Source of the DNA: Clostridia bacterium
GTDB taxonomy: Bacteria > Bacillota > Clostridia > CAKSNL01 > HGM11501
Direction of reading: 5' to 3'
DNA: 64,000 nucleotides
Assembly: GCA_045545475.1 (NCBI GenBank)
Contig: JAZQAZ010000040.1
Span: 9,136 to 73,135 of the forward strand
In this document: piece after piece, positions 1-40,176 of the stretch
Numbering within the stretch: the first letter of the stretch is position 1
How the letters are laid out: each line of letters starts with the position of its first letter
Notes under the pieces: model-generated
What the model was told of the DNA's origin: nothing
What the model saw: only the letters and a program-made list of their open reading frames with translations
Databases searched by the model: none
Position numbers and translations under genes: made by a program

Positions 1-132
1 AAGCCTCTTCGGCTTTTGCACGTTTCACTCGTTAAAAGCCTTTTGGGCTTTTCTTCGGCAATTTTCGTCTCGGTCGTAAAAATTGCCTATGACTCGCAAA
101 ACTTCGCTCCGTAAAAACTTTGTTGTTTTTAC
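1..132. repeat. Structured dispersed repeat, copy A (variant)
   Basis: gtttcactcgtt-AAAAgcc-ttttg-ggcTTTT ... ctcgcAAAACTTCGCTCCG-taaaaac-tttgtt-gttttta, shared with copies at 8012, 21120, 28390, 37034 and 39855. Confidence 0.75.
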
Positions 133-175
133 TTCGCTTAGGCACTCTGTTTTTATATGCATATATTATACCACA

Positions 176-499
176 CTATTTAGAAAAAATCAAATTAATT
201 TTTCCACACCTCCTGCATTTGATGCTTACAACGCCGTGTTTATGCCTCTTTTCGTATCGAAACAAAACCTTGTTGCAATATTCACACCTTACTGTATCAA
301 AGTCCTCATCCGTTAAAAGTTCCGGACATTTAACAACCTTATAGCTTTCCACTTCTTTCTCTGATTCATGGATAACAGTCCTTTTCGCTTCCCATCCTTT
401 CACAGGCTTGCCGTCCTTAATCCATGCACATTTATAATTTTTACACCATTGACAGAGAGAGCCTCCTCCAACAGTATAACTTCTCGCCACATCACTCAC
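176..499 (-). CDS. Phage protein with C-terminal Mu Com-like zinc ribbon
   Basis: C-terminal VRCEYCNKVLF...IKCRRCGKIN matches the Com-family CxxCxKxL...IKCxRCxxxN pattern. Confidence 0.65.
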   Translation of the reverse strand: MSDVARSYTVGGGSLCQWCKNYKCAWIKDGKPVKGWEAKRTVIHESEKEVESYKVVKCPELLTDEDFDTVRCEYCNKVLFRYEKRHKHGVVSIKCRRCGKINLIFSK

Positions 500-835
500 T
501 CCCTTTCATATCCTCAAAGCAAATTTGCAAAATAAATTTCACTCTTTGCTTTTTCGCTCTTAAACTTTACTCATTTACAAGGCTTTAAAAAACACTTACT
601 TTCGAAAGTGTTATGTACACCCGTGAGAAAGCTGCAAATTCATTTGAGGCTTTCAAACGGGTCCGAACACTCCGCAGAGTGTTCCCCCGCAAAACCATTT
701 TTGGGTTTTGATTTCTCTTTAGTCCAAACAGCTAAATATGAGAAAAAACAACGACATCGAGTCTGTTGTTTTTTGCTCAAAAATTTTTACGCCCATTTCG
801 GGCTAAGAAAATTTTTATCGCATTCCTTTTCGGAC

Positions 836-1591
836 TTATTCACGCTGTTCAGACTTCGTTTCGCTAATTGCTTCCTTGCAATTAGCTACACTCACATACT
901 TAAACCACATATATCCGTACCGTGTCACCTTACACTCAACCAACTTGTATCCCGCCGGTGCCTTCGGAGGCTTCGCCTCGGAATACTCCCTCTTAATCTC
1001 CTTCGGTTCCTCGCTCTCAGGATGCTTCACATTCCTCGAAGCTTTGTACCTGTGGCCACCAAACTCCGGTTTCCAATGGTCAAATAGATAGTTGGCGAGC
1101 CCGGTGTAGTCCTGCCCATAATCAACGCCGTCATACTTGTTATGCTCTCGCAGGTGCTCAATACGGCATATCTCGCCATAGGGCCATTGCTTAATTATGT
1201 ACTCTTCCGGAATCCCGTCGGATATCATGTGCAGGTGATAACGGTCTGTCACCGCTCCACGGCCGATATAAATGTTAATCTTCGCATCCGGGTACTTATA
1301 AAGGAGACGTCTGTAAAACCTGTCACGGACCGTCTTCGCTTCCTTGTATGTATGAATTTCGTTCTCCGTGTCAAACGTTAATGTCGAATATAAGCTCTCG
1401 GGAGAATAGTTTTCATTAATCAAACGCGCGTGGCGACGCCTTGAAATACCGTCCCTATGGGCTTGTCTCTCCGCCTCATCCTTAAAGCGGAGACGAGGCA
1501 GCGTCGTTTTGACGCTCCCTCGTGATGATATAGAATATATTTCCTGCTCAAGTACCGCACCCGAAAATGTGCGTTTTTTAACCTTTCTCAT
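836..1591 (-). CDS. HUH endonuclease, rolling-circle Rep-like protein
   Basis: Motif I STLTF, motif II YHLHMI (HUH) and motif III LANYLFDH in the correct order. Confidence 0.7.
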   Translation of the reverse strand: MRKVKKRTFSGAVLEQEIYSISSRGSVKTTLPRLRFKDEAERQAHRDGISRRRHARLINENYSPESLYSTLTFDTENEIHTYKEAKTVRDRFYRRLLYKYPDAKINIYIGRGAVTDRYHLHMISDGIPEEYIIKQWPYGEICRIEHLREHNKYDGVDYGQDYTGLANYLFDHWKPEFGGHRYKASRNVKHPESEEPKEIKREYSEAKPPKAPAGYKLVECKVTRYGYMWFKYVSVANCKEAISETKSEQRE

Positions 1592-1612
1592 ACTCTTTCT
1601 CCTTAGCTCCCC

Positions 1613-1762
1613 TCAAGCCTCTTTTCTTCTTCCGGCCTCGCAATAGCCATTTTCCTTGCATAAACGGTTGTGATAAATGCAAAACATTGCCACTTTACCC
1701 TTATACTTAAACTGTTCTTCGTCAAACGGCACACGGTTCACGCAATCTCTACAAGTTGCCAT
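1613..1762 (-). CDS. Small Cys-rich phage protein (49 aa, not in ORF track)
   Basis: Manual translation MATCRDCVNRVPFDEEQFKYKGKVAMFCIYHNRLCKENGYCEAGRRKEA; start overlaps yopX stop; paralogous to the C-terminus of 7312..7560. Confidence 0.75.
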   Translation of the reverse strand: MATCRDCVNRVPFDEEQFKYKGKVAMFCIYHNRLCKENGYCEAGRRKEA

Positions 1763-2163
1763 CACCCCTCACCGCCTAATAATTCAGGGTTATCGTGTAT
1801 GTTGCCGATTATTTTCACCGAATCTCTGCGACTACCCAAATTAACAACATAATCAGGTTGTTTATCACTATAAATTTGATATTGAGTTAATGCGGGGTTG
1901 TAAATAACAACGCCTACAAAACCAAATTTTTCCTTGCTGTACTTATCAATTACAATATCCCCTTCAAAAATCTTCGTGCCGTTCTTGTCGGGCAATCCCG
2001 TGTACTGTCCAACTGTTTCGGGGATGATTTCGTAAGACACTCTTTCGCCTATATTTTTGAAGTAAGAAATAAAATCAATGTTAGCAAACAGACCTCTATC
2101 TAAATCGCCTTGCTCCCACTCACCGTTGTCTACTCGTTTACCTCTAAACAAAATCTCTCGCAT
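1762..2163 (-). CDS. YopX-family phage protein
   Basis: MREILFRGKRVDNGEW, GQYTGLPDKNGTKIFEGDIV, IIGNIHDNPELL. Confidence 0.9.
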   Translation of the reverse strand: MREILFRGKRVDNGEWEQGDLDRGLFANIDFISYFKNIGERVSYEIIPETVGQYTGLPDKNGTKIFEGDIVIDKYSKEKFGFVGVVIYNPALTQYQIYSDKQPDYVVNLGSRRDSVKIIGNIHDNPELLGGEG

Positions 2164-2363
2164 TATTCAACACCGCCTTTCTCGGTTGGGTGGTCTTGTA
2201 TACGGCTTAACAATACCTTTTTATCGCATTTGACACACCAAGCATACTGTGTTTCATTCATCCAATCGGCAGTTCCACAAGGCTCACCATTGCAATCATA
2301 ATATTGTTCTGATTGAAACTTTGTGTAAAATCCGTTTTCACTTCCACACTTCGGGCATTTCAT
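2163..2363 (-). CDS. Small Zn-finger phage protein
   Basis: CPKC...CVKC; translationally coupled to neighbours. Confidence 0.6.
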   Translation of the reverse strand: MKCPKCGSENGFYTKFQSEQYYDCNGEPCGTADWMNETQYAWCVKCDKKVLLSRIQDHPTEKGGVE

Positions 2364-2965
2364 TTTCCCTCATCTTCCTTTCCCTCGACATAACACCAAC
2401 TCTGTGGCGGTCTTGTAAGTGGTTTTTCGCCCTCAACTGTGCATTCGTGTAGCATATCCGCACAATTAAAAAAATAATACTTGCAACCCAAACATTTAGT
2501 GTCAAAATATTCCTTTTCCCATTCGGGACAAATAGTAATAAAATCGCTTAACTCCTTCGGCTTGTCATAGATCACAAGATTTGATATGTGCCAACCGTAC
2601 ACGTCACTCCCATTTGAGTATGAATCAATGCTAAAATAGGACAATTTACATTTTTCTAAGTATTCGTTGCTTAATTCTTTGGTGTAAAATTTCTCATCAA
2701 CAATCCTTAGCCTGATATCACTATTGCAAGTCCCACAATGCGCCATCCTATCAATCTTTTCACATACAAACTCACCTATTACTTTACCGTCAAGCCGTTC
2801 TTTCCTCAAAAAATCAAACCATCCGTGTTTGTCTTTGGTGCAATAGATGTAGCACTTAAAAGGCACATCAAGCTTCGGCTTTGTTTTCCTTACTTCAACC
2901 AGCTTTTTGAACTGGGTGATAAGCTCGCACCACTTTGGCTGTATGCTTATTAAAACCGCTTTCAC
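2360..2965 (-). CDS. ASCH/PUA-like domain phage protein
   Basis: LISIQPKWCELI..KKLVEVRK, YIYCT, GKVIGEF, YGWHISNL, RPPQSWCYV. Confidence 0.8.
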   Translation of the reverse strand: MKAVLISIQPKWCELITQFKKLVEVRKTKPKLDVPFKCYIYCTKDKHGWFDFLRKERLDGKVIGEFVCEKIDRMAHCGTCNSDIRLRIVDEKFYTKELSNEYLEKCKLSYFSIDSYSNGSDVYGWHISNLVIYDKPKELSDFITICPEWEKEYFDTKCLGCKYYFFNCADMLHECTVEGEKPLTRPPQSWCYVEGKEDEGK

Positions 2966-3174
2966 TTCGAATCACCTTTCAGAAAATCCTTAAACAGTGC
3001 AAGTTTTGTATTTACGTAAATATCAAATAAACGGTCAGCTTCTTTTTTACATTCGGGACACACCTCAATGCCTTTCACAGATAAGTAATATTTTGATATT
3101 CTTTTATCCGGAATAATAATACCTTTTAACTTATAGCATTTTGCTCCACATCTATCACAAATATTTTTTTTCAT
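2962..3174 (-). CDS. Hypothetical phage protein (CxxC...CxxC)
   Basis: Coupled ORF in early operon; CDRC and CPEC. Confidence 0.55.
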   Translation of the reverse strand: MKKNICDRCGAKCYKLKGIIIPDKRISKYYLSVKGIEVCPECKKEADRLFDIYVNTKLALFKDFLKGDSK

Positions 3175-3178
3175 CCGA

Positions 3179-3492
3179 TTACACCTTCCCCAACAGCTTA
3201 ACCTTTGAGCTTTTCTTTCTCGTCACTTCCGCCACATCGGTGAAATTAAGCACCGCACTGCTTCCGTCGTCAAGCGAAATCGTAACTCTTCTGAATCCGC
3301 CGTCCATGCAGGCACGAAGATTTGCCTTAAGCCTCTCAACAGTTTCCTCGCTCACAGGATAAAAGCCGTATTCCTCGCACCTCTCGCCAAAAAGCTCCTC
3401 TATTCTCTCAAATCCGCTTCCCTTTTGCTATCAACCTCTACATCAAGAGTCAAAATCTGCCCGCAAAATTCACACGCTCCCGATAAAAACAT
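3179..3492 (-). pseudogene. Frameshifted phage gene
   Basis: MFLSGACEFCGQILTLDVEVDSKREADLRE* stops early; another frame continues ERIEELFGERCEEYGF...KLLGKV* to 3179. Confidence 0.6.
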
Positions 3493-3497
3493 AAAAA

Positions 3498-3836
3498 TCA
3501 CTCCTCTGCAATGTTACCGGTGTCTTCGTTGTTCTCTTTACACTCTGTTCTGTCATTCTGAGCGGAGCGAAGAATCTCTTTCTCCGCCTCATCCAACGAT
3601 ATATCTTCTATCTCCGCCCTTACTTCAAGGCAATACAGATAGTCACCCATATGCTTTTTCTGCTCTTTAAGTAAATCAATACTGCACGAAGGCGTAAAGT
3701 TAAGTGTTTTTGCCTCATACTTAACTACCATTTTGTGAAGCTTTTCGTATCTTATCTTCGCCTGCATATACTCTGCAATAAATCTATCCTTATAGTCCGC
3801 ACTGTTCATCATCTTAACAGTATCTTTCAATTCCAT
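3498..3836 (-). CDS. crAss001_48-like phage protein
   Basis: MELKDTVKMMNSADYKDRFIAEY.Q.KIRYEKL...LLKEQKKHMGDYLYCLEVRAEIE pattern. Confidence 0.7.
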   Translation of the reverse strand: MELKDTVKMMNSADYKDRFIAEYMQAKIRYEKLHKMVVKYEAKTLNFTPSCSIDLLKEQKKHMGDYLYCLEVRAEIEDISLDEAEKEILRSAQNDRTECKENNEDTGNIAEE

Positions 3837-3885
3837 AAAATCAACTTCTTTCTTAAAATCCTTAAACAGTTTTATAAAAATATCA

Positions 3886-4042
3886 TTATACAGATGAGGA
3901 TTTGCACCTCATATAGAATGATTAACACCGCATCCTCGCCTTACGCGACTGCTTTTTCCCTACTCAAGAGGTGTCGGGGGCAGTGGTTCATTCCAGTACT
4001 GTTGCCCCTTTTTCCTGCGTCTACCTATTCCGCCACCATATA
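3886..4042 (-). ncRNA. tRNA-like RNA with ~100-nt insert replacing the anticodon and variable arms
   Basis: Acceptor TATATGG/CTGTATA, Leu-type D arm TGGCGGAATAGGTAGACGC, T arm TGAGG-TGCAAAT-CCTCA. Confidence 0.6.
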
Positions 4043-4205
4043 CCTTAAAATCGTTCTTTTATCATTTACCCGTACCTTCTTTCCTCCAGTCCCGCTCCAT
4101 AGCTCTGAACTTCATCCGGCACCGTTTCCAAGTCTTATTTTTCCTCATCCATCGCCGGCAATAAAACTTATACCTGATTTTCTTAAACATAACCTGCCCT
4201 CACGT

Positions 4206-5522
4206 TCACTTAAACAATTCGTGTGTACCGTCGCACAAAGCCTTTTCTTCGTCTGACATTTCATATCCCAATAGCTCAAGTTTTTTATATACGAAGTCAA
4301 GATTTTCGTTTTTCTTATATGTAGGAAGGCTTGTCCCATACCCCTGATAATAATATCCGTTGTTTTTGTCATCATTGCTCATCGCATAAATCATAAGTGC
4401 AAGTATATTCCCCGGTTCCTTCTCGGCATAATCCTGCAGTTTTTCGTTATCAACTGAATATTTATGCTTGGTATACTTTTCTCCGAGTTTTTCACATAAA
4501 AGTTCTACATTAGCACCGTAAATGTGATGTCCTGTAAGGTCTCTTTCGATAAACTCTCTCAGCCATAAATTCAAAACGCTCTCATACTTTTTCCCGGAAG
4601 AAAACTCACTTATAAATTCTCTTCTCATATGATAAGCCTTCTCCGTCACTTTCCCAAGTGCTGCATTTCGTTCCTCTACCTTAATTTCTTTGGGAGATTT
4701 CTTAGGCTTTTCCGCCTTCTTTTTAGGCTTCTTAACATACAGTCTGTAATTGTTGCTTCTTACGTTCCAAAAGTATTCTTTCCCTTCCTTGACTTTATCG
4801 GAAAAGAATCCTTCTGTATATTCTTCCGCACTTACGGATGCGACTTCCTCATAGTCTCCCGCCCAGGTATAAATAGAATCGTCCTTCTTTGCACTGATTT
4901 TTTTCATCTCGGCTTTAACTTTCGGCATTGTCGCATCAAGCGCCTGCTTTTCAAGTGCCTCTCTGAGTTTCCAGTTAAAATTATTCGTACCCACACATTC
5001 AAGCACTTTGTTTCTTTCTTTTTCATTAACTATGTCGGAAACTTTAATATAATCTTCAAGCTTTCCGCCACGCTCTTCCGCCTGCTGAAACTTCGCCTTG
5101 TCGAGATTTAACAGCTTAAGTCTTCGCTGTACGGTAGACTGAGAAAAACCTATCTTTTCTGAAATCTGCAACTCTGTATCTCCTAGGTCAAGCATCATCT
5201 GTATGCCTTCAGCTTCTTCGTATTTTGTAAGGTCAGACCTTTGCATATTTTCCAGGAGCATTGTCGCTATCTGCTCCTTATAGCTCATCCCTGTCGCCAC
5301 GGCACAAGGTAACTCTTTAAGTCCCGCCGCTTTTGCCGCCGCCAGTCTTCTGTGTCCGATTATAACGGTATATCCGTCCTTTTCAGGAACAACCGTTAAA
5401 TTCTGCATTATACCGCTTCTGGCAACCGAAGCGGTAAGCTCTGTAAGGTCGCCAAGTTCTTTTCTCGGATTGTCTTTGTGCGGCCTCAATAAATCAATAC
5501 TTATATTCTTAATTTCATTCAT
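4206..5522 (-). CDS. ParB/RepB/Spo0J-family phage protein
   Basis: ParBc domain: LRPHKDNPRK, GIMQNLTV, IGHRRLAAA, ENMQRSDL, followed by HTH. Confidence 0.88.
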   Translation of the reverse strand: MNEIKNISIDLLRPHKDNPRKELGDLTELTASVARSGIMQNLTVVPEKDGYTVIIGHRRLAAAKAAGLKELPCAVATGMSYKEQIATMLLENMQRSDLTKYEEAEGIQMMLDLGDTELQISEKIGFSQSTVQRRLKLLNLDKAKFQQAEERGGKLEDYIKVSDIVNEKERNKVLECVGTNNFNWKLREALEKQALDATMPKVKAEMKKISAKKDDSIYTWAGDYEEVASVSAEEYTEGFFSDKVKEGKEYFWNVRSNNYRLYVKKPKKKAEKPKKSPKEIKVEERNAALGKVTEKAYHMRREFISEFSSGKKYESVLNLWLREFIERDLTGHHIYGANVELLCEKLGEKYTKHKYSVDNEKLQDYAEKEPGNILALMIYAMSNDDKNNGYYYQGYGTSLPTYKKNENLDFVYKKLELLGYEMSDEEKALCDGTHELFK

Positions 5523-5525
5523 CGC

Positions 5526-6899
5526 TTAGCCTCTTTCCCTCATATATTTTCTTATATATTTCTTCTTTCGTGCTTCTCTGCAACTCTTGCAGAAGCGGTT
5601 TTCCTTTCGCTCGATAAATGTATCTCCGCATCTTGCACAATACTGTGGCTTTATTCTTAAAAACTCTGTGCAGTCGTCACAGCTCTCGCATTCTTTCCTG
5701 CAGCCAATAATGTCGTCCCAGTGCATACACATATCCTTTTGGAAATAATAATCGTATATTTCTCCGGCATTGCTGCGCTTTACCGCCCAGGCATGGAGTA
5801 TTCCCGCCATAAGCTCCATTTGCTCTTTTGCCAAAACCTTTTCTTCCGGAGGCATTATCCTTAAATGCTTAAGCTTCCTCTCCGGGAGATTATCTCCGAA
5901 TTTACCGTTTCCGACCATAGCACGAACCGCATCTGCATTTTCCGTGAGATAATACCTGTATACAAGCCCTCTTAAAGCTTTCTCGCTACGATCAGGAAGA
6001 TTCAATGCAATGTCCCGAAACTTTTGTCCCTGCTTTATTCCTTCGGTAATTATCTCAAATTCTGCAGCTGTCCATTCCGTATGGTTTTCCGCCTTGATGG
6101 GAGTAGTCTTTATTTTAAGTTCCGAAAGCCGTCTTATAACCGCCCCTTCTGTTCTTTCTACCAAACGTGCAACTTCTTTAAGTCCGTATTCTTTTCTTTC
6201 AACCAGTTGCTTTAAGCGAAAATCTTCTTCCGCAGTCCAAGGTGTCTGCCTGGGTGCCCTGGCATCCCGACGTCGCTTGCCTTTAACCCAGGCAGGTTCA
6301 AAACCTAAAGCGTTCTCTTCAAAATGAGAAAAGTCTAAAAACGCCTGATTTTCTTCGGCCCATTTCCAGAAGTCGTCAAGATAAATAACCTTTACCTTCT
6401 TTTCGCTGAGAGTTTTGTATTTCACCGGGAATCCTCTGTTTTCTACCCAGCTTTTCATCTTGTAACTGTCTGATCCGCTACCTAAACCTAAAGCAATATA
6501 AAGCTGATGACAAGTTATGTAATCGCCCGATTCTAAAAACGGGCCCAGATTAAGCCTGTTTCTCATAACATCGATGGCGTTTTTGCTTCTGCCAAGATGT
6601 TCACATATGGCATTAACCGACTTTACGCCCCAAAATTCCGCCAGGTATTCTTTTTCTTCTTCGCTGCCTTTAACTCCCGCAAAAACAATGGTACCTAAAA
6701 AGTCAATACCGAAAAGCGTCATATTGTAGGGTAAATTGCGAAGTCGCCCTTCTTCATTGCAAATAATCACCAAATCCGTCGCAACCGTAACGGTCTCTAT
6801 ATCACCGCCAACCAACTGCTGAAGACTCTGAATCTCGTTTCTCACAGTTCTAACTTCGGGAGCCTTCCCCGGAACCTTAACAATAACCTTTATCTTCAT
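5526..6899 (-). CDS. DUF3846-like N-terminus fused to Myb/HTH-repeat phage protein with C-terminal Zn finger
   Basis: N-terminal LQQLVGGDIETV..IICNEEGRL; WTAEED and WTAAEF repeats; C-terminal CARC...CKSC. Confidence 0.6.
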   Translation of the reverse strand: MKIKVIVKVPGKAPEVRTVRNEIQSLQQLVGGDIETVTVATDLVIICNEEGRLRNLPYNMTLFGIDFLGTIVFAGVKGSEEEKEYLAEFWGVKSVNAICEHLGRSKNAIDVMRNRLNLGPFLESGDYITCHQLYIALGLGSGSDSYKMKSWVENRGFPVKYKTLSEKKVKVIYLDDFWKWAEENQAFLDFSHFEENALGFEPAWVKGKRRRDARAPRQTPWTAEEDFRLKQLVERKEYGLKEVARLVERTEGAVIRRLSELKIKTTPIKAENHTEWTAAEFEIITEGIKQGQKFRDIALNLPDRSEKALRGLVYRYYLTENADAVRAMVGNGKFGDNLPERKLKHLRIMPPEEKVLAKEQMELMAGILHAWAVKRSNAGEIYDYYFQKDMCMHWDDIIGCRKECESCDDCTEFLRIKPQYCARCGDTFIERKENRFCKSCREARKKKYIRKYMRERG

Positions 6900-6917
6900 T
6901 TCTTCACTTACTTCCCT

Positions 6918-7100
6918 TCAATTTTTGTAGGGGCTGATGCCCACATTAGCCCGCTTCTTCACTTTTCCTTTCAGCACTTTAATAATCTGCTGTAAAATCT
7001 TAATCTTCTCCTTAAGCGATTTGTTCTCTGCGCTGAGCTTCCTGTTTTCTTCCATAAGCTCCCCGCACACCGCCTCAGGCGTATCATATCCGGTTAACAT
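6918..7100 (-). CDS. Small coiled-coil phage protein
   Basis: ATG after GGCGG RBS, coupled to the upstream stop. Confidence 0.5.
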   Translation of the reverse strand: MLTGYDTPEAVCGELMEENRKLSAENKSLKEKIKILQQIIKVLKGKVKKRANVGISPYKN

Positions 7101-7560: not shown

Positions 7561-7578
7561 TTTTCTCCCGCCTTTCTT

Positions 7579-7997: not shown

Positions 7998-8011
7998 TGT
8001 CGCTCATTTTG

Positions 8012-8136
8012 GTTTCACTCACTAAAACCCTTTTCGGGTTTTATCACCGATTATCACCAAGTAAATGCTCCGCAAAACTTGGTTGCATCGGTGTCGTTCG
8101 CAAAACTTCGTTCCGTTTTTTCTTTGTTGAAAAAAC
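8012..8136. repeat. Structured dispersed repeat, copy B
   Basis: AAAAccc-ttttc-gggTTTT; caccgat..ccaagt-AAATGCTCCGCAAA-acttgg..atcggtg; AAAACTTCGTTCCG. Confidence 0.85.
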
Positions 8137-8137
8137 T

Positions 8138-8563
8138 TCACTTACCAATCACCTTAACCTCTGTGCCTATTTCTTCAGCTGTAAATGTAAAATTGATATT
8201 GGGAATAATAAATGCACTCGCATCGGGAGGCGTTATCCTCTTGCAGACATATGCCGCCTCGCAAACTTCAAAGCGTGTTCCGCCCTTATCTTCAACTATG
8301 TACCCCTTCTCGGGAAAATCAGCCTTCGGAAACAGCGGCACTACACCGCTATCATCATGAGCGCCCACGCTGTCATTCTGAGCCTTCAGGCGAAGAATCT
8401 CTGCGCTCATTTCAAAAATTCCCTCTGCAATATACTGCTGCTCCGGAATACCCTTCGCCTTTATTCGCTCCGCAAACTCAATCAACTCTCTATATTTCTC
8501 CACGAGTAAATCTCCTCCCGAGAAAATCTTCAAAGCTTCCGCTCCGCTTTTCTGCATCTTCAA
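8138..8563 (-). CDS. Hypothetical phage protein (start uncertain)
   Basis: ORF in co-oriented early operon. Confidence 0.45.
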   Translation of the reverse strand: MKMQKSGAEALKIFSGGDLLVEKYRELIEFAERIKAKGIPEQQYIAEGIFEMSAEILRLKAQNDSVGAHDDSGVVPLFPKADFPEKGYIVEDKGGTRFEVCEAAYVCKRITPPDASAFIIPNINFTFTAEEIGTEVKVIGK

Positions 8564-8780: not shown

Positions 8781-8781
8781 C

Positions 8782-8997: not shown

Positions 8998-9015
8998 AAA
9001 ATCACGCTCCTTTTA

Positions 9016-9133: not shown

Positions 9134-9165
9134 CTCGGACTCGCTCTGCTCATAAAAAAGCCTCC

Positions 9166-18372: not shown

Positions 18373-21096
18373 ATGGGATTATTCACTAAAATCTTCGGTA
18401 CTCACAGTGACCGTGAAATAAAAAAGATAATGCCTGTTGTTGAAAAAATTTTGGCTTTGGAACCCTCCATGCAGGCACTTTCCGACAGCGAGCTTTCTGC
18501 CCAGACAGAAAAATTCAAAGAACGCTATAAAAACGGAGAAAGCTTGGATTCCCTTCTTCCCGAAGCCTTTGCCACGGTAAGGGAAGCTTCTTTCAGAGTT
18601 TTGGCAAAGAAACCCTTCCCAGTTCAGCTTATGGGCGGTATAATTCTCCACGAAGGAAGAATTGCCGAAATGAAAACAGGTGAAGGAAAAACCCTTACCG
18701 CAACGCTTCCGGCATACCTTAATGCAATTGCAGGAGAAGGCGTCCACGTCGTTACCGTAAACGAATACCTTGCCTCCACCCAGGCAGAAGAAATGGGAAA
18801 ACTTTTTAACTTCCTTGGTCTATCCGTGGGCACCACTTTAAGCGGAAGAAGTCCCGAGGAGAAAAGAGCTGCATACAATGCCGATATCACCTACGGAACA
18901 AATAACGAATTCGGCTTTGACTACCTGCGTGACAATATGGTTATCTATAAAGAAAACATGGTTCAGCGTCCGCATGCCTTTGCAATTGTTGACGAAGTAG
19001 ACTCCATATTAATCGACGAGGCAAGAACCCCTCTTATTATAAGCGGTCGTGGCGAGGAATCATCCGTTCTGTACACCCATGCAGACCGATTTGCCAAAAC
19101 GCTCAAAGCTTTCTATATCAAGGAAACCAACGACAAGGAAAGTAACGATAACATTGATGCTGACTATATCGTTGAAGAACGCACCAAATCTGTAACGCTT
19201 ACCGCAAACGGTATTAAAAAGGCAGAAATAGCATTTAATATTGAAAACCTGTCTGATCCGGAAAATATGACCTTAAGCCACCATATCAATCAGGCTGTAA
19301 GGGCAAATTCTATTATGAAACGTGACGTTGACTATGTGGTGAAGGACGGAGAAATCATCATTGTTGACGAATTTACAGGCCGACTTATGTACGGAAGACG
19401 ATATAACGAAGGCTTGCATCAGGCAATAGAGGCAAAGGAAGGCGTAAAAGTAGCAAACGAATCAAGAACGCTTGCAACCATCACTTTCCAGAATTATTTC
19501 AGACTTTATAAAAAGCTTTCGGGTATGACCGGTACCGCCATTACAGAGGAAGAAGAATTCAGGGAAATATACCGACTTGACGTTGTATCAATCCCCACAA
19601 ACCGACCCATGATAAGAGTTGACCATGATGACAGAGTTTATAAAAACGAACGTGGCAAATTTATGGCAATTGCCGCACAGGTGGAAGAGTGCCACAAAAA
19701 AGGTCAGCCGATTCTGGTAGGTACCATTTCCATTGAAAAATCAGAAGCACTTTCTGCTCTCTTAAAGAAAAAAGGTATCCCCCATCAGGTTCTTAATGCA
19801 AAACACCACGAAAAGGAAGCTCATATCGTCGCTCAGGCCGGAAGAAAAGGTGCAGTTACCATATCCACCAATATGGCCGGCCGTGGAACAGATATTCTTC
19901 TTGGCGGTAATCCGGAAATCATGGCTCTTGATCAGATGAGAAAAGAAGGCTATGAGGAATCCGTTGTTGCCGAAGCCAATATCCACACCCCCACCGTCGA
20001 TCCTGAAATTCTTTCCGCCAGAGAGCACTTCAATGAGCTCTATAAGGAATTCAAGGTCGAAACAGACAAGGAGCACGAAGAGGTTGTATCTTCAGGCGGT
20101 CTTTTCATCCTTGGTACCGAGCGTCATGAATCAAGACGAATTGACAATCAGCTCCGTGGACGAAGCGGAAGACAGGGTGATCCCGGCGAATCAAGATTTT
20201 TAATCGCACTTGACGATGATCTGATGCGACGTTTCGGCTCCGACAGGATAGAGACCATCATGAGCATGACAGGTTTTTCCGATGATGAGCCTATTGAAGC
20301 AAAAATGCTTTCCGGCGTAATAGAAAACGCTCAGAAGAGAGTTGAAAGCAACCACTTCGCTGTCAGACGTAATGTTCTAAGATACGACGATGTCATAAAC
20401 CAGCAAAGAAGTGTAATGTATGCACAGCGTGCAATGGTTCTTGATAACAAGGATTTGAAGCAGAACATCATATCCATGGCGGAAAAGGTGTTCTCCGAAA
20501 TCTTAAGCGTATATGCTTCAGACAACTATGCCGATAACTGGGAATGGGAAGGTTTAAATGCCGCTGTTTCCAAAATACTCCCCCTTGAAGCTCCATTAAA
20601 CTATGACCGAGACACATATGACCGTCTCTCACGAGAATGGGTTCTTGAAGATTTAATGAAGCTTTTCAATGAAAACTATGAAAAGCAGGAGGAAATCTTC
20701 GGCGACGAAATGCGTGAGGTTGAGCGTGTAATCATGCTTCAGGTGGTTGACCGTCACTGGATGCAGCATATCGATGACCTTGCACAGCTTCGTGAAGGTA
20801 TTTCTCTACGTGCCTATGCACAGCACGATCCGGTGGTTGAATATCAATCTGTAAGTTCAGAAATGTTCGATGAAATGAATGCATCAATCAGAGAGGAAAC
20901 CGTAAGCGGAATTATGCATGTAAGAAAAAGAAGCGATGCAACCGAGCGTAAACAGGTTGCAAAAGCGGTCTCCACAGGCGAAAGCAAGGAAGTTGCAAGA
21001 AAACCCGTGGTAAACGAAGAAAAGAAAGTTGGCAGAAACGATCCCTGTCCCTGCGGCAGCGGCAAGAAATATAAACAATGTTGTATGGAAAAATAA
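18373..21096 (+). CDS. secA: Preprotein translocase ATPase SecA
   Basis: [35 protein letters not shown]-terminal [18 protein letters not shown]. Confidence 0.99.
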
Positions 21097-21119
21097 ATTC
21101 AATAAAGAATTTATTTTTC

Positions 21120-21222
21120 CAAAATTGTGCGAGCGTTGCCGACGTAGCCGAGTTTTACGGAGTATTTACTCGGCGTAAGTCGGCTGTAAAACGCGAACAG
21201 CCTTTTGTGCACTGCTCGGAAC
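21120..21222. repeat. Structured dispersed repeat, copy F (inverted orientation)
   Basis: Reverse complement reads gccgac-ttac-gccgagt-AAATACTCCGTAAA-actcggc-tac-gtcggc. Confidence 0.8.
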
Positions 21223-27550: not shown

Positions 27551-27613
27551 ATGTCATTCTTCCATCGGAGATTTTCCAGTCAGAGACGAAAATCTCCGAT
27601 GGAAGAATCTCAC
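27551..27613. repeat. Long palindrome of the TGTCATTCT...GAAGAATCT REP-like type
   Basis: ATTCTTCCATCGGAGATTTTC...GAAAATCTCCGATGGAAGAAT; related ends at 3551 and 37021. Confidence 0.6.
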
Positions 27614-28389: not shown

Positions 28390-28584
28390 CGTAAAAAATT
28401 GCTTTGTTGCAATTCCTAAGAAAACCCTCTTCGGGTTTTCTTTTTTTATTAATCAGCCTCGCTAAAAACCTTTTCGGCTTTTAACGACACCTTTCGCTGA
28501 TTTAAATGCTCCGCAAAAAATCAGCACGGTGTCCACGCTCGCTGATTCTTCAGTAAAAAAATTGCTTTGTTGCAATTTTTTTAC
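28390..28584. repeat. Structured dispersed repeat, copy C
   Basis: gacacc..gctgattt-AAATGCTCCGCAAA-aaatcagc..ggtgtc; flanking AATTGC-tttgtt-GCAATT hairpins. Confidence 0.85.
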
Positions 28585-29699
28585 TTTCGCCAGAATCCCT
28601 TATCCTTCTTTATGCCTGCATAATTTTTATCGCCGGTCATTTCGGCAAATTCTAAAAGCTTCGCCTTCTGTTCCTTGCTTAAGTTTTTGGGCGTATCAAC
28701 GATAATCGTTACATATTCGTCGCCCTTCTGAGGGTTATGAAGCTTCTGAATTCCCTTTTCCTTAAGACGGAAAATGGAATTTGACTGTGTTCCCTCCGGG
28801 ATGGTAAATTCCACATCGCCGTGAATTGTGGGAACCTGACAGGTTGCACCAAGGGCCGCCTCCGTTATGCTGATGTGCTTTTCAACATAAACATCAAAGC
28901 CCTTTCTCTTAAAGGTTTTGTCGGGAGTAATTGCAACGGTTACAAGTAAATCGCCGTTGGGACCTCCACGAAGGCCGCATTCGCCCTCGCCTGACACGCT
29001 CATCGTCTGTCCGTGATCGATACCGGCCGGAATATTAACCTCAACTGTCTTCGTTCTTCTTACGCTTCCTCTTCCACGACAGCTTTCGCAGGGAGTTTTT
29101 ATAATCTTACCGCTACCAGAGCAGCTCTGACAGGTTGTAACCGTGGAGAAAAAGCCACCCATGGTGTTTCTCACCTGACCTGTACCGTGACAAACCGAGC
29201 ATGTTTCAGCAGTAGTTCCCGCCTTAGCACCGGAACCTCCGCAAGTGTCGCACTTTTCGCTTCTGTAAACCTCTATTGTCTTCTTACAGCCGAAAGCCGC
29301 CTCGGAAAACGTAAGGTTTATCTGCTTATTCAAATCGTTTCCGCGTACAGGGCCGTTTCTTCTCTGACCGCCGCCACCGAAAAAGCTTCCGAAAATGTCA
29401 CCAAGGTCAACATCAAAGCCTCCGAAGCCGCCGTTAAAGCCACCTCCGTATCCGCCGCCCTGAGTCTGATCAAAGGCCGCGTGACCGAAACGGTCGTACT
29501 TTGCCTTCTTATCCGCATCGGATAAAACCTCATATGCCTCGTTTACTTCCTTAAACTTAACTGCCGCACTCTCAGGATCGTCCTTATTCAAATCGGGGTG
29601 GTACTTTTTCGCAAGTGAACGGTACGCCTTTTTAATTTCTTCGTCCGTCGCTCCCTTGGAAACGCCCAGCACCTCGTAATAATCTCTTTTATCTGCCAT
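28581..29699 (-). CDS. dnaJ: Chaperone DnaJ
   Basis: J domain HPD, G/F region, four CxxCxGxG repeats. Confidence 0.98.
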
Positions 29700-33401: not shown

Positions 33402-33534
33402 TTATTCTCCCATTTCTAGATAAGTATTGATAATTAATTTTTTCAAAAAATACTAGTAAATATGCATAAAAACATTTTATGACTACAGAAAAATATACGA
33501 TTAAGTATAAATATTTTTCTGTGGAGGTTATAAA

Positions 33535-34791
33535 ATGGCAAAGTTAAAGGATTTAAAAGATTTAGTTCAAAATGTCAATTTGACAGAAGAACAGATTGCA
33601 GAACTTCTCACTATCATTATTGATATGAAGAAGAAAAATGACAATGCTGAAAAAGGTAAGGTCGTGTTACCACCCGAATTAGTGGCATTATTAGAAAAAT
33701 GCACTATAAACAGAGGTGAAGAATTAGTTTGTCCTTTATGTGGTAGCACTTCTGTAAATAAAAATGGTAAAAAAGATGGTAGACAAAGATACTTATGCAA
33801 GTCTTGTGTTAAAACTTTTGGAGATACTTATGGAACTTTGCTTTATCATTCAAAATTAACAGTAAAGCAATGGATTGAGTTTTTGACCTTAACCCTTTAT
33901 AATGCAAGTCTAAACAGAATTAAAAAGGATATGGGTATCAACCTCGCAACTGCTTGGTACAACAGACACAAGGTATGCTCTCTTATAATGCAGTTAGAAG
34001 GCGAACAAGATAGTTTTCCCTCTATTGTTGAAGGTGACGAGTTCTTTATTCCGCTGTCTTTCATTGGTGAGAGAAACAAGGCTTTCTTCATTGAAGAATT
34101 GAAAAGAATGCCACGTCACCATCGTAACAGAGCAGCAAAGTTTGAATATATTGAACAGGCTGGCTATGAAGTTGCAGAGGTTGAAGATATGGATGGCTTT
34201 TACGATGATGAAACTATCCCCTCTAATCTTTCAGTATCAAAGGAATTGAATGGTCTTGATAAGGAAGAAAAGAGAAAAAGAGGTATCAGCAACGAACAGG
34301 TTTGTGTTATTACTGCTGTGGATAAATTACAGAATGCTTATCTCGCGCCTACTTGCTTGGGTAAGATTGAACCTAAACATTTAGAACAGCATTTGAGTGG
34401 CAAGTTTGCTGAAGATAGTATTCTTGTTACTGATAGTTTGAGAGCATACAGAACATTTGCTAATAACAACAAGATACATTTAAGACAGATACCTTCAGGC
34501 AGACATACTTCTGGTCCATTCAATTTAGGTAAGGTTAATTCCTATCATTCCAAAATGACTGACTTTTTTGACAGATACAAAGAAGTTGGCTCAAAGTATT
34601 TAGACCACTACCTCGCTTTGTTTAGGTGGCAAGAAAAAGGGTTCAATTCCAGAACAGCAGACAGAGTTAATATGTTACTTGATATGCTGACAAAAGGTGT
34701 ACCCGAAAAAGTGGAATTCCAAAAATTGAAATATAGACCTTTTCCTTTTGATACTAAAAATATTGTGAGGGTAGAGACAATTTCCGCATAA
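33535..34791 (+). CDS. IS1595-family transposase (DDN-type)
   Basis: Zn ribbon CPLCGS...YLCKSC; VEGDEFF, LVTDS, VNSYHSK, YLDHYL. Confidence 0.9.
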   Translation: MAKLKDLKDLVQNVNLTEEQIAELLTIIIDMKKKNDNAEKGKVVLPPELVALLEKCTINRGEELVCPLCGSTSVNKNGKKDGRQRYLCKSCVKTFGDTYGTLLYHSKLTVKQWIEFLTLTLYNASLNRIKKDMGINLATAWYNRHKVCSLIMQLEGEQDSFPSIVEGDEFFIPLSFIGERNKAFFIEELKRMPRHHRNRAAKFEYIEQAGYEVAEVEDMDGFYDDETIPSNLSVSKELNGLDKEEKRKRGISNEQVCVITAVDKLQNAYLAPTCLGKIEPKHLEQHLSGKFAEDSILVTDSLRAYRTFANNNKIHLRQIPSGRHTSGPFNLGKVNSYHSKMTDFFDRYKEVGSKYLDHYLALFRWQEKGFNSRTADRVNMLLDMLTKGVPEKVEFQKLKYRPFPFDTKNIVRVETISA

Positions 34792-34941
34792 TGTGGTATA
34801 ATTATATTGAAAATTGGAACATTTTTCTAATTTTTCAGTCTATATGAGTAGAAAGAGTTAGACAAACTTGAATTTGAAGGTGAATCATAAAACAACGCTA
34901 TGCTTCTTGAAGAAGTAATAGAAAGAGGAGAATTTTGGATA

Positions 34942-36099
34942 ATGAAAAAAAATATAAAAATATTTATTATTTTATCTCTCATTTGCTGTATTGGTGTCTT
35001 ATGTTATTTATTAACCACTAATTTTGAGAGTAGTAAAAAAGTATCTGTGCACAAAGAAATAGGAAACGAATTGCAAGATGATATAAGTGCTATGTTGTGT
35101 TATAGCGAAGGTCATTCAGAAATTGCAAAAAGCGAAACCTTTTTTTACACAAAAGATTACCTAAATAAATCTGAAAATCAATATTATTTAGGTGTTTCAC
35201 ACGTTTTCCCTGATGAAATAATTACAGAAAGATTTGCGATTCCTTTAGGATATAAAAATAGTAAGGAAATGGCATCTAATTTAGGACAAATTCTTGATTA
35301 TACTAATTATGAGAAAGCAGAAATACTAATTTTAAATGATTGGTATAATGAAAATAAGAAAATTATTGTTGCTTATATTATAGATAATGATTTGAAAACA
35401 GTTGAATTTTCAGTTGAAGACGAAGCTTATTTAGGAACATATGTAGATAATAGCACAATTTATACTTTGATAAATTCAAAGAACCAATTGATAATTTCTT
35501 CTATTGACACGGCAAATAACAATAATGAAATAACAACTGTTTCTTATTCAGGACTTGTTCGAGATAGAGCAGATTTGTCAGGCTCATATACCCTTATAAA
35601 AAACAGTATTTTATATTTGGGCGAAGCTACATACGATACAAAAAGTGATACAGTCTTTTCTACAATTTCTATGCTTAATTTAGCTAATAATGAAACTTAT
35701 AGTATTACATTTGAAAATGAATGGATTTATAATCTTTTGCATAATGATAATGAAATAGTTGCATTGATGGGTGCTGGAAAAGATGATATAGGATATTATC
35801 AAGATATAGTGTGCAATATTATTGATTTAAATTTAGATGCTATATCTACTCATTCGATTATGGGACTACCTGATAATATTGATACAGTGAATTTTGCAGA
35901 TAGAAGTCAAATATATAATGGGATACTTTACACAATAATAAACGGAACAACTTTAGGGAAAAATCATCTACTTGCTTATAACATAAAAGAAAAAGAAATT
36001 ATTTTTCAAGCTGAACTTGAAACAAAAATGGTAAATAAATATTTATTTGATTGGAATTTTTATATTTATAGCAATAATAATTATTACGAAATACCCTAA
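34942..36099 (+). CDS. IS passenger gene: N-terminally anchored/secreted protein of unknown function
   Basis: AGGAG RBS; MKKNIKIFIILSLICCIGVLCYLL hydrophobic leader; beta-rich composition. Confidence 0.7.
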   Translation: MKKNIKIFIILSLICCIGVLCYLLTTNFESSKKVSVHKEIGNELQDDISAMLCYSEGHSEIAKSETFFYTKDYLNKSENQYYLGVSHVFPDEIITERFAIPLGYKNSKEMASNLGQILDYTNYEKAEILILNDWYNENKKIIVAYIIDNDLKTVEFSVEDEAYLGTYVDNSTIYTLINSKNQLIISSIDTANNNNEITTVSYSGLVRDRADLSGSYTLIKNSILYLGEATYDTKSDTVFSTISMLNLANNETYSITFENEWIYNLLHNDNEIVALMGAGKDDIGYYQDIVCNIIDLNLDAISTHSIMGLPDNIDTVNFADRSQIYNGILYTIINGTTLGKNHLLAYNIKEKEIIFQAELETKMVNKYLFDWNFYIYSNNNYYEIP

Positions 36100-36301
36100 T
36101 TGTTGAAGTAGAAAAGAAAGCCAAGGGAATTTATATGAAGTGTAAATGAAGCATTAATAAAGCGAGATTGTGAAAAATAAATTCCAATTTGTTGAACTAA
36201 ATACATATATGATATGGTGCATACTATAAATGTATCAATATTTCTGTATGCACCTTTTTGTATACTTTTACACATCAATACTTATCTAGAAATGGGAGTA
36301 A

Positions 36302-36880: not shown

Positions 36881-37033
36881 AAGTCTTATCCTTTCCCGCC
36901 TCAGGCGTCTTTCTCTGTTTTTGAAAAGTAGTATATCACAAAAACCAAAACAATGCAAGTAAAAGAATTTTCTTTTTTTGGACAAATTTTGTTAGTAAGA
37001 ATTTATCTTTCAATCGAATTATGTCATTCTTCC

Positions 37034-37472
37034 GTGCACAAAAGGCTTTTTGCCTTTTGCTGTCGACTTACTTCGGGCAGTGCACAAAAGGCTTTTCGCC
37101 TTTTGCTGTCGACTTACTCCGGGCAGTGCACAAAACCCTCTTCGGGTTTTGATTTTTTGTTTCGCTCACTAAAACGCTTTTCGCGTTTTACTGTCGACTT
37201 ACAGCAATTTAAATGCTCCGCAAAAAATTGCTACGTCGACCACGTTCGCAAAACTTCGTTCCGTAAATTGCTTTGTTGCAATTTACTGCACTCATTTCTT
37301 TATGGAAATTTTCCAGAAAGCTTTTCGCTTTCTGCTTTTTTTGTTTCACTCGCTAAAAGGCTTTTCGCCTTTTTCCACCCATTTACGCCAAGTAAATGCT
37401 CCGCAAAACTTGGCTACATCGGTGACGCTCGCAAAACTATCGTATAAAAATTTCTTTATGGAAATTTTTATA
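37034..37472. repeat. Structured dispersed repeat cluster D (46-bp tandem x2 plus two full cores)
   Basis: Period-46 units at 37034, 37080 and 37126; AAATGCTCCGCAAA loops at 37211 and 37394. Confidence 0.88.
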
Positions 37473-39009
37473 CTAAAAACCAGCTATATGCTTCCACATA
37501 AACACCCGTTGGGCTTATTTTCGGAATAACAATGTTTTTCTTCGCAGCAACCTCTGTAGTTTTGAAATAAATTCCCACAAGCGGAGCACTTTCCGCCATA
37601 GCTTTACCAAACTTCTTTGCCTCAGAAAGAAGGCTTTCACCTTCAGCCGCCGCAAGTGCCGCAATTCTCATATCCATAACTCCGCCGGAATAACCAAATA
37701 CATTGGCACTTCCGCCGCTACCTATAAGAAAAGCAAAATTAGCAGCATTTCCTATGGTACATCCTCCAATAAAAGCATCATAATTACCCGATGTAAGTCT
37801 TTCCTTATAGCTTGAATATGATAAAATTTCCACATCCGCAGAAATTCCGTAATTAAGCAACCAATGGCTAAGGAAATTAGCAATACCGACACGGACAGAA
37901 TCATCTTCATTTACTATTATGCTGAATTTTAAACTTTTTCCGTCTTTTTCATAAACGCCGGCTCCGCCCATTTTCCATCCGTCTCTCGTGAGTATATCCG
38001 AAACCTCTCCTATATCCGTCTCGTCAGTCTCAAATGCGTAAAAATACGCCGCCGGATTTACAGGAGTAGAAGCAGCTGTTTCCACCTCTTCAAATTCATC
38101 CGCCAATGAAGCCTTTCTGCAGGCGGCAAAAATTGCTCTTCTTGCCGATTCCTCCGAGAAAAGATTTCCTGCCGAATTAAATCCGAGAAATTCAAATCTG
38201 TTGCTTTTACCTTTGTAAATCTTAATTCCTTTTCCCGACTTATCAGCAGTATTATCAGGATTTATGAGTATGTCGGTTTCTCCCGATAAAAAGCTGGTTT
38301 CAGCTTTTATATCCGTATTCATATACAAAACTTCAATTTCATCTATATACGGACGCCCCAAATGATATGAGCTGTTTTTTTCACACACCAGAGAAGTATA
38401 GCCAACATCCTCCTTGCGGCAGATAAACTGGCCTGTTCCGTTTGGCATATCCATTTTTCCGGGAGAACCATCCTTTATTATTGGAAACGTAAGCATTGAT
38501 GCAAAATTAGCTTCAGGATTGTAAAGTTCTATCACAATTTCTCCCGAATCTGATATTTCTGCATTTTTAATATTTCTGACACAGCCGGAAAAACTTCCTC
38601 CATTGTATCTTATATAATCAATGGTATACTTAACGTCATAATTGGTAAGTGACGATCCGTCTGCAAAGGTGATACCGCCCTTTATTTTAAGTCTGGCCGT
38701 GAGATAATCATCAGACATGGAATACTCCGACACAAGATTTTTCTTTACGTTAAAATCATCATCCAAAGTAAAAAGACCATCATAAAAAAGATACAAAAGT
38801 TCTCTGCAGCTTTCATAGTTTGTGGCAAGGGGATTAAACGTGTCGGGTTTTCTTGAAGAAACCCTTATTTTTCCTCCCTGTATCATGTTCTCCGTTGATG
38901 TTTTTTCCGTCTCCGTTACATTTTCAGTAATTTCTTCTGTAACTTCCTTGCTGCAACCCACACAAAAAAGCATGGCGATAACAGTAATCATTGTAAAAAT
39001 TTTTTTCAT
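37468..39009 (-). CDS. ABC transporter substrate-binding lipoprotein (SBP family 5)
   Basis: Lipobox VGC; PDTFNPL, FADGSSLT..DVKYT, PNGTGQF. Confidence 0.8.
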   Translation of the reverse strand: MKKIFTMITVIAMLFCVGCSKEVTEEITENVTETEKTSTENMIQGGKIRVSSRKPDTFNPLATNYESCRELLYLFYDGLFTLDDDFNVKKNLVSEYSMSDDYLTARLKIKGGITFADGSSLTNYDVKYTIDYIRYNGGSFSGCVRNIKNAEISDSGEIVIELYNPEANFASMLTFPIIKDGSPGKMDMPNGTGQFICRKEDVGYTSLVCEKNSSYHLGRPYIDEIEVLYMNTDIKAETSFLSGETDILINPDNTADKSGKGIKIYKGKSNRFEFLGFNSAGNLFSEESARRAIFAACRKASLADEFEEVETAASTPVNPAAYFYAFETDETDIGEVSDILTRDGWKMGGAGVYEKDGKSLKFSIIVNEDDSVRVGIANFLSHWLLNYGISADVEILSYSSYKERLTSGNYDAFIGGCTIGNAANFAFLIGSGGSANVFGYSGGVMDMRIAALAAAEGESLLSEAKKFGKAMAESAPLVGIYFKTTEVAAKKNIVIPKISPTGVYVEAYSWFLV

Positions 39010-39022
39010 ATCTTCATTTCCT

Positions 39023-39817
39023 TTATTCAAGCTCTATTATTGCACCCAACGATCCGAATTTCCCTTTTCCTGCTCTGCTGGAAAAATAAAGCTGATTGTT
39101 ACAAACCGTGCATTCTCCTGCCAGGGAAATATTTTCGTCCTTAAGCCCCGCTTCAATAAGGGTGCGTCTCACTGCTTCCCATAAATCGGCCCGATAATGT
39201 ATACCGTCGCCTTCTTCTTTTATAAATGACAAATCCCGGAAGCTTTCCGAAAACGCATCATATACATCTTTTTTAATTTGAAAACAGCACTTTCCGATGG
39301 ATGGACCTATTGCTGCCAGAATATCTGCCGGGTCGCTTCCGTATTCATTCACCATCGCCTTAACAGCATTCAGCACTATTTTTTTCACAGTGCTCTTCCA
39401 TCCTGAATGTATGGATGCACACACCTTTTTTTCTCTGTCATACAAAAGCACCGGCACACAATCGGCAGATGTGGAAAGAAGGGGGATTCCGCCTTTATCT
39501 GTAACGAGAGCATCACAGCCGACAGATACCTTTACAGGCTCTTTTAAAATAGCAACCTTACTGTCATGCACCTGATTTGTTCTGCTTAAGTTTTCTTCTG
39601 TAAATGAAAGAGCTGAGCATACGATGTTTACATTCTTTATAACAAATTCATCTCTGTCTCCCCTTAAAAAACCCAGATTTAAAGACGACAGATGTTCCTC
39701 TTCCGAAACCCCTCCGAGTCTCGTAGTGAAACAGTGTTTTACGCCCTCCTTTTCCAAAAGGGGACTTATAAGATATTCAAAATTTCCGCATTTTCTGTGT
39801 TCAAAACCAATTTTCAT
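39023..39817 (-). CDS. pgeF: Peptidoglycan editing factor PgeF / YfiH laccase-domain protein
   Basis: FTTRLGGVS, NQVHD, ADCVPVLL, HSGWK, GPSIGKCCF. Confidence 0.9.
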   Translation of the reverse strand: MKIGFEHRKCGNFEYLISPLLEKEGVKHCFTTRLGGVSEEEHLSSLNLGFLRGDRDEFVIKNVNIVCSALSFTEENLSRTNQVHDSKVAILKEPVKVSVGCDALVTDKGGIPLLSTSADCVPVLLYDREKKVCASIHSGWKSTVKKIVLNAVKAMVNEYGSDPADILAAIGPSIGKCCFQIKKDVYDAFSESFRDLSFIKEEGDGIHYRADLWEAVRRTLIEAGLKDENISLAGECTVCNNQLYFSSRAGKGKFGSLGAIIELE

Positions 39818-39854
39818 AGTTTCTCCTCTGGCTATCCGGCTTTCACCGGTTTTC

Positions 39855-40176
39855 GTGCAAAAGGCTGTTCGCCTTTTTTCTGCAGTTCTTTCGCAGTTAT
39901 CGCACAAAACCCTATGCTTCGCTCCGGGCTTTCGTCGTCTGCGGAACCCGCCTTTCGGCACGTTCCTCGCTTGCCTATGCTTCGCTCCGCAAAACGCCTT
40001 ATTGCGTTACTCCTGCACAAAAGGCTATTCGCCTTTTGATACTGATTTGTTTCACTCGCTAAAACCCTGTTCGGGTTTTAACACCGACTTCCGACAATTT
40101 TAATGCTCCGCAAAAAATTGTCACGTCTCCACGCTCGCAAAACTTCGCTCCGCAAAACGCCTTATTGCGTTTTGCT
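39855..40176. repeat. Structured dispersed repeat cluster E
   Basis: gacaattt-TAATGCTCCGCAAA-aaattgtc; repeated AAAAggc-tgttc-gccTTTT and TTCGCTCCGCAAAACGC modules. Confidence 0.85.

Follow-up and report, generated by a model that had tools for sequence, protein, structure and literature searches.

The stretch analysed here (the window) comprises 64,000 nt of the Clostridia bacterium contig JAZQAZ010000040.1 (GCA_045545475.1; positions 9,136-73,135, forward strand). It is low in GC and opens with a prophage arm (~1-14,000), which is followed by secA-prfB, the hrcA-grpE-dnaK-dnaJ operon, clpP and other genes. Dispersed over its first 40.2 kb, in prophage and core regions alike, are seven copies of a structured non-coding repeat whose branched core of ~100 nt is the subject of this report. 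The seven cores and all the stems quoted for them in the first-pass annotation lie where that annotation had placed them; the element is larger than the ~120 bp it had proposed, each core sitting in an array of ~130-450 bp in which hairpin modules are shuffled, as it had noted. Six of the cores match a pattern made of loop and A/T-run bases only, compared with a mean of 0.00 and a maximum of 0 matches in 100 shuffles. The seventh, at 22, is a variant in which the long arm is replaced by another hairpin, and it is recovered (20-109, E 5e-8) by a covariance model built from 14 other cores. The same model finds no other full core in the whole window, and none beyond 40,200.

Scanning 185,579 species genomes with the exact pattern gave 11 loci, eight of them from three Clostridia metagenome-assembled genomes with 1-5 exact matches each and with genes 84-92% identical to those of the window. 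These eight loci hold 10 true cores, all scoring at least 70.7 bits with the core model; L011, L012 and L017 are chance matches (at most 16.4 bits). Six cores from the window and eight of the 10 from the related loci form the 14-row alignment; the second core of L014 and the core of L015 were left out of it, their outer left arm being replaced by another module (E, below). Blastn of the arrays against phage and plasmid collections gave no match, or only short matches of E 0.4-9. Since only these three related genomes match and the phage and plasmid collections gave nothing meaningful, the exact repeat family is, on the sequences searched, a narrow one; the exact pattern overlooks diverged kin, and several related contigs end within arrays. 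With Rfam 15 at gathering score the window yields eight tRNAs and no match to the repeat, and of 19 weak matches to E 10 in positions 1-41,000 none overlaps a core. The parts of the literature that were consulted, on which all citations here rest, hold no account of the family (including PMC6006769, PMC3733652 and PMC2267715), and published consensus sequences beyond those parts could match. The repeat family is real and apparently undescribed.

The core is a three-way junction. Its closing helix, P1, comprises seven pairs, as a rule including a tandem T-G/G-T, and continues with tandem G-A and a further two pairs. In the long arm, P2 (6 bp) leads through an internal loop closed by G-A to P3 (7-8 bp), beyond which lie a T-rich loop and the tip TRC-GGA-GYA; the short arm is a 7-bp side hairpin with a GAANA loop. 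The strand carrying GGA folds better than shuffled sequence in all seven window copies (z -3.07 to -5.43), as does the opposite strand (-2.60 to -4.92). The complete junction forms on the GGA strand only; the closing helix with its G-T and tandem G-A pairs appears on that strand alone in three of seven DNA folds, bearing out the earlier claim of one-strandedness, and RNA-parameter folds of the copies at 8012, 37159 and 22 form it there as well. All 14 cores have C-GGA-G; tandem GA is found in 12 of the 13 closing helices that are intact, and the GAANA loop, in which position 4 alone varies, in 25 of 29 side hairpins. The apical GC-GGA-GC previously described is accurate in its C-GGA-G center, the 21120 copy having TAC-GGA-GTA in place of TGC-GGA-GCA. 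The 21120 copy has also lost its right closing arm, and the outer stem of the 40050 copy is chimeric and partly unpaired. The ends of the closing helix differ among sites in three variants.

Each array is made up of a few hairpin modules in which loops, tandem G-A and G-A-closed internal loops are fixed and stems are variable. Module C has a perfectly paired stem of 8-15 bp and an A-rich loop of six bases; it lies 5' of the core, is often framed by GA-GC-GNA and GGA-GC-GA, and has 19 of its 21 matches within arrays. A second side hairpin usually lies 3' of the core. Module D is a double hairpin that opens with TGCG and closes with CTCA. There is one copy in the window, L014/L015 together have five, and D sits inside loops that belong to other modules, in three distinct contexts. 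When D was inspected for features of miniature inverted-repeat or insertion-sequence (IS) elements, it was found to have TG...CA ends and to be preceded by A in six of six cases (TA in five of six), with variable right flanks. Module E is the hairpin that replaces the long arm at 22, and it is also found within a TGTC-tagged hairpin at 27551-27612. Arrays expand through tandem duplication (units of 46 bp and 168 bp), through nesting and through the replacement of stems as blocks. The idea of a pseudoknot joining the C loop to the closing arm was dropped, inspection by eye revealing no covariation. The arrays and the features that adjoin them are listed in Table 1.

Table 1. Repeat arrays of the window and adjoining features of the prophage
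Positions	Strand	Feature
1..141	-	Prophage array: framed hairpin C (102-141), closing helix, E-type arm replacing GGA arm, side hairpin (34-52); second side hairpin truncated by window start
562..585	-	Probable nick site of prophage Rep, not part of the repeat; motif common to five phage relatives; predicted function
691..894	-	Array separating Rep gene from nick motif: module C (855-894) within end of ORF; long helix 844-854/722-732 around GAAAA hairpin and module D (739-822); side hairpin (691-709)
836..1591	-	Prophage HUH-type replication initiator (Rep); phrog_3584, E 6.6e-35
8012..8144	-	Module C and full core; provides stop codon of prophage ORF 8138-8563
21086..21212	+	Lies between the head-on genes secA and prfB; C-type hairpin over secA stop codon followed by core
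27551..27612	+	TGTC-tagged REP-like hairpin with E-like arm; only module read against flanking genes
28393..28594	-	C hairpin over dnaJ stop codon, followed by core (28449-28554) whose closing helix is specific to this site, then second side hairpin and partial C
37022..37473	-	Largest array: C-type hairpin over stop of solute-binding-protein gene, core (37341-37444), side hairpin, module C, core (37157-37261), side hairpin, 46-bp tandem partial units, TGTC tag (37022-37034)
39850..40183	-	Array from mgtC stop codon: module C, core (40047-40150), side hairpin, partial C, variant junction modules (39850-39990); stops short of probable laccase-gene start near 39817

The stems covary while the loops stay fixed, as the first-pass annotation had maintained. 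Over P2, P3, P4 and the side stem of the 14 cores, 318 of 326 cells are Watson-Crick pairs, three are G-T, five are mismatches and none is A-C, and among the window copies P2 and P3 are 53% identical as opposed to 87% for the loops. In an arm-swap test the native combination of left and right arms scores 117, a value reached by one of 720 permutations (mean 84). The cell count was made after re-registering rows from fixed anchors; the MAFFT alignment misregisters four rows in P3 and three in the closing helix, and the count on the raw alignment (91.7% paired versus 79.5% when shuffled and 34-41% when slid) therefore underestimates the pairs. None of 500 shuffles equals the raw alignment on four of five measures; the fifth, further pair types, is not significant (197 of 500). 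The rows are related, and part of the covariation consists of a few stem variants that moved between sites as blocks, so that independent covariation events are fewer than copies. Some stem changes resemble the copying of one arm from the other and others go through T-G; the asymmetric loops and G-A pairs persist, and arm copying alone would not keep them. In total, these data support selection for the fold rather than for the sequence of the stems.

Three points go beyond the first-pass annotation, namely orientation, position and conservation. Counting the seven window sites, L007 and the capsid-gene site of L014/L015 as nine independent sites, the strand that folds coincides with the upstream gene's sense strand at nine of nine, and at seven of nine the upstream stop codon lies within the first ~15 bases of the array or two bases before it. 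The C-terminal ~17 residues of Rep come from module C; at site 22 the stop codon is ~35 bases from the array. The arrays, which had been called intergenic throughout, are not strictly so, given that they overlap stop codons and that the final ~17 codons of ORF 836-1591 contain a module. Five of the nine sites lie in phage-like regions and four follow housekeeping genes. The window has a single GC-skew polarity against which secA and prfB are oriented, indicating that the secA copy follows transcription and not the replication fork; codon bias confounds the corresponding four-fold-site test. Terminator-like signals within the arrays number eight in antisense and three in sense, and reversed insertions may thus be polar and purged. 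A role as a sense-strand terminator is unsupported for the core or C, and only the second hairpin of D qualifies.

Orthologous copies are almost unchanged. The secA cores are identical at 73 of 76 positions, the dnaJ cores at 105 of 106 and the capsid-site block at 323 of 330, compared with four-fold-site identities of 54%, 68% and 42-47%, respectively. Because spacers of the core region are themselves 87-99% conserved, the argument is less strong outside the phage-like cluster; within that cluster spacers are 59-82% conserved and the contrast between repeat and background is clearest. Stasis is combined with replacement: L008 and L010 are nearly identical in the flanks of the dnaJ site, yet their cores are only 80% alike and each is fully paired, the stems in these sequences having been replaced en bloc. 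A protein search with a spurious ORF across the largest array returned only the window's own sequence and a relative, P0122, whose translation suggests a different module mix at the same site. Sense orientation, starts at stop codons and strong orthologous conservation argue for constraint in place and not merely for a decaying mobile element.

Combining these observations, we suggest, with about even confidence, that the repeats are a lineage-restricted, non-coding family resembling REP (repetitive extragenic palindromic) repeats and bacterial interspersed mosaic elements (BIMEs), spread as folded single-stranded DNA by an enzyme acting in trans and retained as intercistronic structures. The first-pass annotation had left open a non-autonomous mobile element or a structured RNA family selected for its fold; selection for the fold holds, and the family is likely to be non-autonomous. 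Beyond the observed fold, shuffling, gene-end position and conservation, we infer an enzyme that would be encoded elsewhere in the genome, would be HUH/Y1-like by analogy, and would cut and join the fold as single-stranded DNA. Its substrate would be the sense strand, made accessible as the template of lagging-strand synthesis or, during transcription, as the non-template strand. Insertions would survive at gene ends only, in the orientation that keeps a hairpin-plus-U run out of the mRNA, and fixed copies would be kept by selection, to the benefit of the host, as intercistronic mRNA structures or transcription-coupled DNA structures. Mobility is supported by the presence of the module-C tail in one of 120 Rep homologues, the nesting of D, the 168-bp and 46-bp tandem units and the block swap at dnaJ. 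Several findings weigh against this proposal. No gene of the RAYT (REP-associated tyrosine transposase)/TnpA-Y1, GIY-YIG or DUF559 type is present among the scanned ORFs of the window and of the eight related loci. GTAG at the foot of the long arm in seven of 16 cores speaks for a REP-like family, but it is not an invariant tag, being found also in only three of seven framed C modules (elsewhere GCAG, GAAG, GTGC, GTGA, GCAA or ATAG). There are no inverted REP/iREP dimers, modules being co-oriented within arrays, and no cleanly empty core site came to light. The 95-99% identity of orthologous copies against 42-68% at synonymous (four-fold) sites is unlike a purely selfish element. The secA orientation, one head-on site in three genomes, is more simply explained by action as RNA.

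Alternatively, and with appreciably lower probability, the repeat is a multi-copy structured RNA that acts in the mRNA after the stop codon, as a processing or stabilization site, an antitermination or protein-binding platform, or possibly a catalytic element, and that owes its spread to ordinary recombination and its retention to selection in the host. The sense orientation at all nine sites including the head-on secA site, the start of arrays at the stop codon at seven of nine and the conservation in place all speak for RNA, although ordinary core spacers are likewise 87-99% conserved. So do the series C-G, T-G, T-A in a single pair of P3 at the secA site and the tandem T-G/G-T of the closing helix, although there are only three G-T among the 326 variable-stem cells. 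GAANA loops in 25 of 29 side hairpins, with position 4 alone free, are comparable to boxB-type pentaloops, but the invariant apical loop is a GNA triloop and not a GNRA or UUCG tetraloop. Intergenic stem-loops are reported to set operon stoichiometry in Clostridia (PMC4423207), but the host genes here (secA, dnaJ, mgtC and phage genes) have no common function, and nesting, tandem growth and the lack of an Rfam match also count against this explanation. On the side of DNA are the invariant C-GGA-G, the scarcity of G-T and the occurrence of the GA-GC-GNA-GC-GA head also in the TGTC-tagged REP-like repeat of the window at 3551-3575; TGTC tags adjoin modules at 27552 and 37022 and none is found at any core. 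As described in PMC13037366, GCGNAGC is an exceptionally stable DNA mini-hairpin, and the RNA counterpart of the related tetraloop GCGAAAGC is much less stable. Precedents on this side are REPINs, whose spacers show compensatory changes (PMC3116915), and TnpA-REP, which reads one strand and requires unpaired features (PMC8266576). Sequence alone cannot reliably tell action as RNA from action as single-stranded DNA (PMC5737381).

We think it unlikely, though worth stating, that the repeat belongs to a new class of transcription-coupled structured elements, in which an enzyme reads the branched fold on the sense strand, installs or exchanges it precisely at stop codons and swaps whole helices from copy to copy with the junction kept, the host then using it as a post-stop control unit, or else that it is a new multi-copy catalytic or antiterminator RNA. 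Should an enzyme exist that recognizes this fold and places insertions at gene ends, leaving genes unbroken, it would represent a structure-guided recombinase of a new kind.

An explanation without any enzyme, and with little function, is that template switching corrects one arm from the other while gene conversion and slippage spread the copies, so that covariation comes for free. Multi-base changes are indeed mirrored, the closing arm of L009b having become the exact complement of its partner, the C hairpin tracks the differing secA 3' ends, one-sided intermediates are few, and the dnaJ block swap would fit. Given that such correction would erase asymmetric loops and G-A/G-T pairs, yet GGA is kept in 14 of 14 cores and tandem GA in 12 of 13, and that strand bias and new sites are left unexplained, we regard this explanation as improbable.

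The only HUH gene found encodes the prophage replication initiator Rep, and the modules could be its single-strand initiation or recognition signals, scattered by Rep. In agreement with this idea, arrays lie to either side of the probable nick site, on the strand that encodes Rep, five of nine sites lie in phage-like regions, and GNA mini-hairpins are found in phage and plasmid priming sites. The HUH motif is present in 111 of 120 homologues of Rep ORF 836-1591, which has no PDB match by sequence. The module-C tail, however, is confined to one of the 120; relatives of 95% and 79% identity end in other tails, that of the 95% relative (P0001) being a peptide that resembles another repeat, found at window 7610-7760 and in L007. 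The core model gives nothing better than E 4 in six loci with Rep relatives, four sites follow housekeeping genes, and Rep has its own conserved motif. A motif like 562-585, a likely nick site, lies directly downstream of PF23343-type HUH Rep genes of tailed phages in L001-L005, and L001 and L002 have a hairpin rich in GAA mini-loops ~110 nt beyond it. Rep as a dedicated partner is thus rejected, its relatives lacking the repeat and ending differently, and scattering by Rep is in our view quite improbable. Because its closest relatives carry other tails, the end of the Rep gene is probably an insertion hot spot and Rep not the mobilizer.

Least probable are attC-like folded recombination sites of a tyrosine recombinase, which would account for structure conserved over sequence, use of one strand and position after stop codons, but there is no cassette array and no integron integrase (the sole integrase seen is an ordinary prophage one), the fold is branched, and the closing-helix ends are not conserved, with three variants, and do not follow the attC box order. 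That attC sites turn up in RNA-motif screens (PMC5737381) is consistent with the resemblance.

The window and its relatives contain further repeats. TGTC-tagged REP-like repeats lie at window 3551-3575 and 8371-8405, L007 1415-1470 and L013 600-690, two of them being translated inside the 3' part of prophage ORFs, and a GTAG-tagged hairpin of the classical REP type lies at 6915-6945. A third family, of paired hairpins, is found at window 7610-7720, L007 3771-3850 and L015 630-720, the L015 copy having an E-like arm and the Rep homologue P0001 apparently ending in a translated copy of it. In L007 a GA-rich structured stretch (3560-3680) interrupts a duplicated gene start and resembles the variant modules at 39850-39990. 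The hairpin at 27551-27612 sits in a ~200-bp stretch missing at the orthologous site of L008. Two related promoter-like plus-strand stretches (23074-23236 and 27614-27790), each followed by ~100-150 nt and a two-way terminator, are candidate small RNAs; the second lies within a region absent from L008 and the first is replaced in L016. A 128-bp duplication (77%; 1620-1747 and 7319-7446) lies between two small prophage ORFs, and partial duplications of a tRNA-Ser end and its flank (49851-50335; 115 bp, 92%), with structured spacers, look like old integration scars. At 33535-36099 an IS1595-like transposase gene and a low-GC ORF of 399 aa without Pfam or PHROG match are bounded by related 44-bp inverted sequences (33407-33450 and 36255-36298). 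L014 and L015, from two genomes, share a phage-like cluster of holin, amidase, scaffold-like gene, capsid, array, small gene, terminase and portal, with related genes in L007 from a third, and this cluster is possibly a domesticated gene-transfer-agent-like locus. A programmed frameshift is common in prfB; here the gene (21276-22388) is a single open frame of 370 aa without one.

With GTAG and CGTC/TGTC REPs and BIMEs (PMC3733652, PMC8266576) the family shares small extragenic palindromic modules in mosaics and tandem arrays, a position near or over upstream stop codons at gene 3' ends, strand-specific unpaired features and TGTC tags adjoining two modules; REPs likewise lie near upstream stop codons, cluster at 3' ends and often supply the stop codon, as stated in PMC3733652. 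Strict membership fails because there is no invariant tag, there are no inverted dimers and the core is branched and ~100 nt long, whereas REPs are single hairpins of 20-50 nt; the variable stems with fixed loops and the sense orientation at nine of nine sites are further differences, and no tnpA-REP, the gene that repeats flank in a REPtron, was seen among the ORFs scanned in the window and the eight loci. REPINs (PMC3116915) are similarly non-coding and hairpin-forming, with compensated variable stems and an assumed mobilization in trans as single-stranded DNA, but they are symmetric doublets of two invariant inverted 16-mers, whereas this family is asymmetric and multi-branched with ends that differ among sites. 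The predicted structured motifs DUF1874, GEBRO, ARRPOF and PAGEV (PMC5737381) share covarying multi-stem folds that may act as RNA or as single-stranded DNA; in contrast to them, the family has no Rfam match, is not plasmid-linked and does not occupy consecutive spacers. The mosaics BOX, Efa-1, Clop-1/Clot-1 and dRS3 of Firmicutes and Neisseria, compared by their descriptions only, are likewise lineage-restricted, modular, structured and intergenic. To our knowledge, strong stem covariation is not a trait of any of these mosaics. REP-like repeats have mostly been studied in Proteobacteria and as simple hairpins, and a branched, loop-defined family in Clostridia that combines stasis, block swaps and nesting provides a tractable case for how repeats spread, whether they act as DNA or as RNA, and how they become domesticated.

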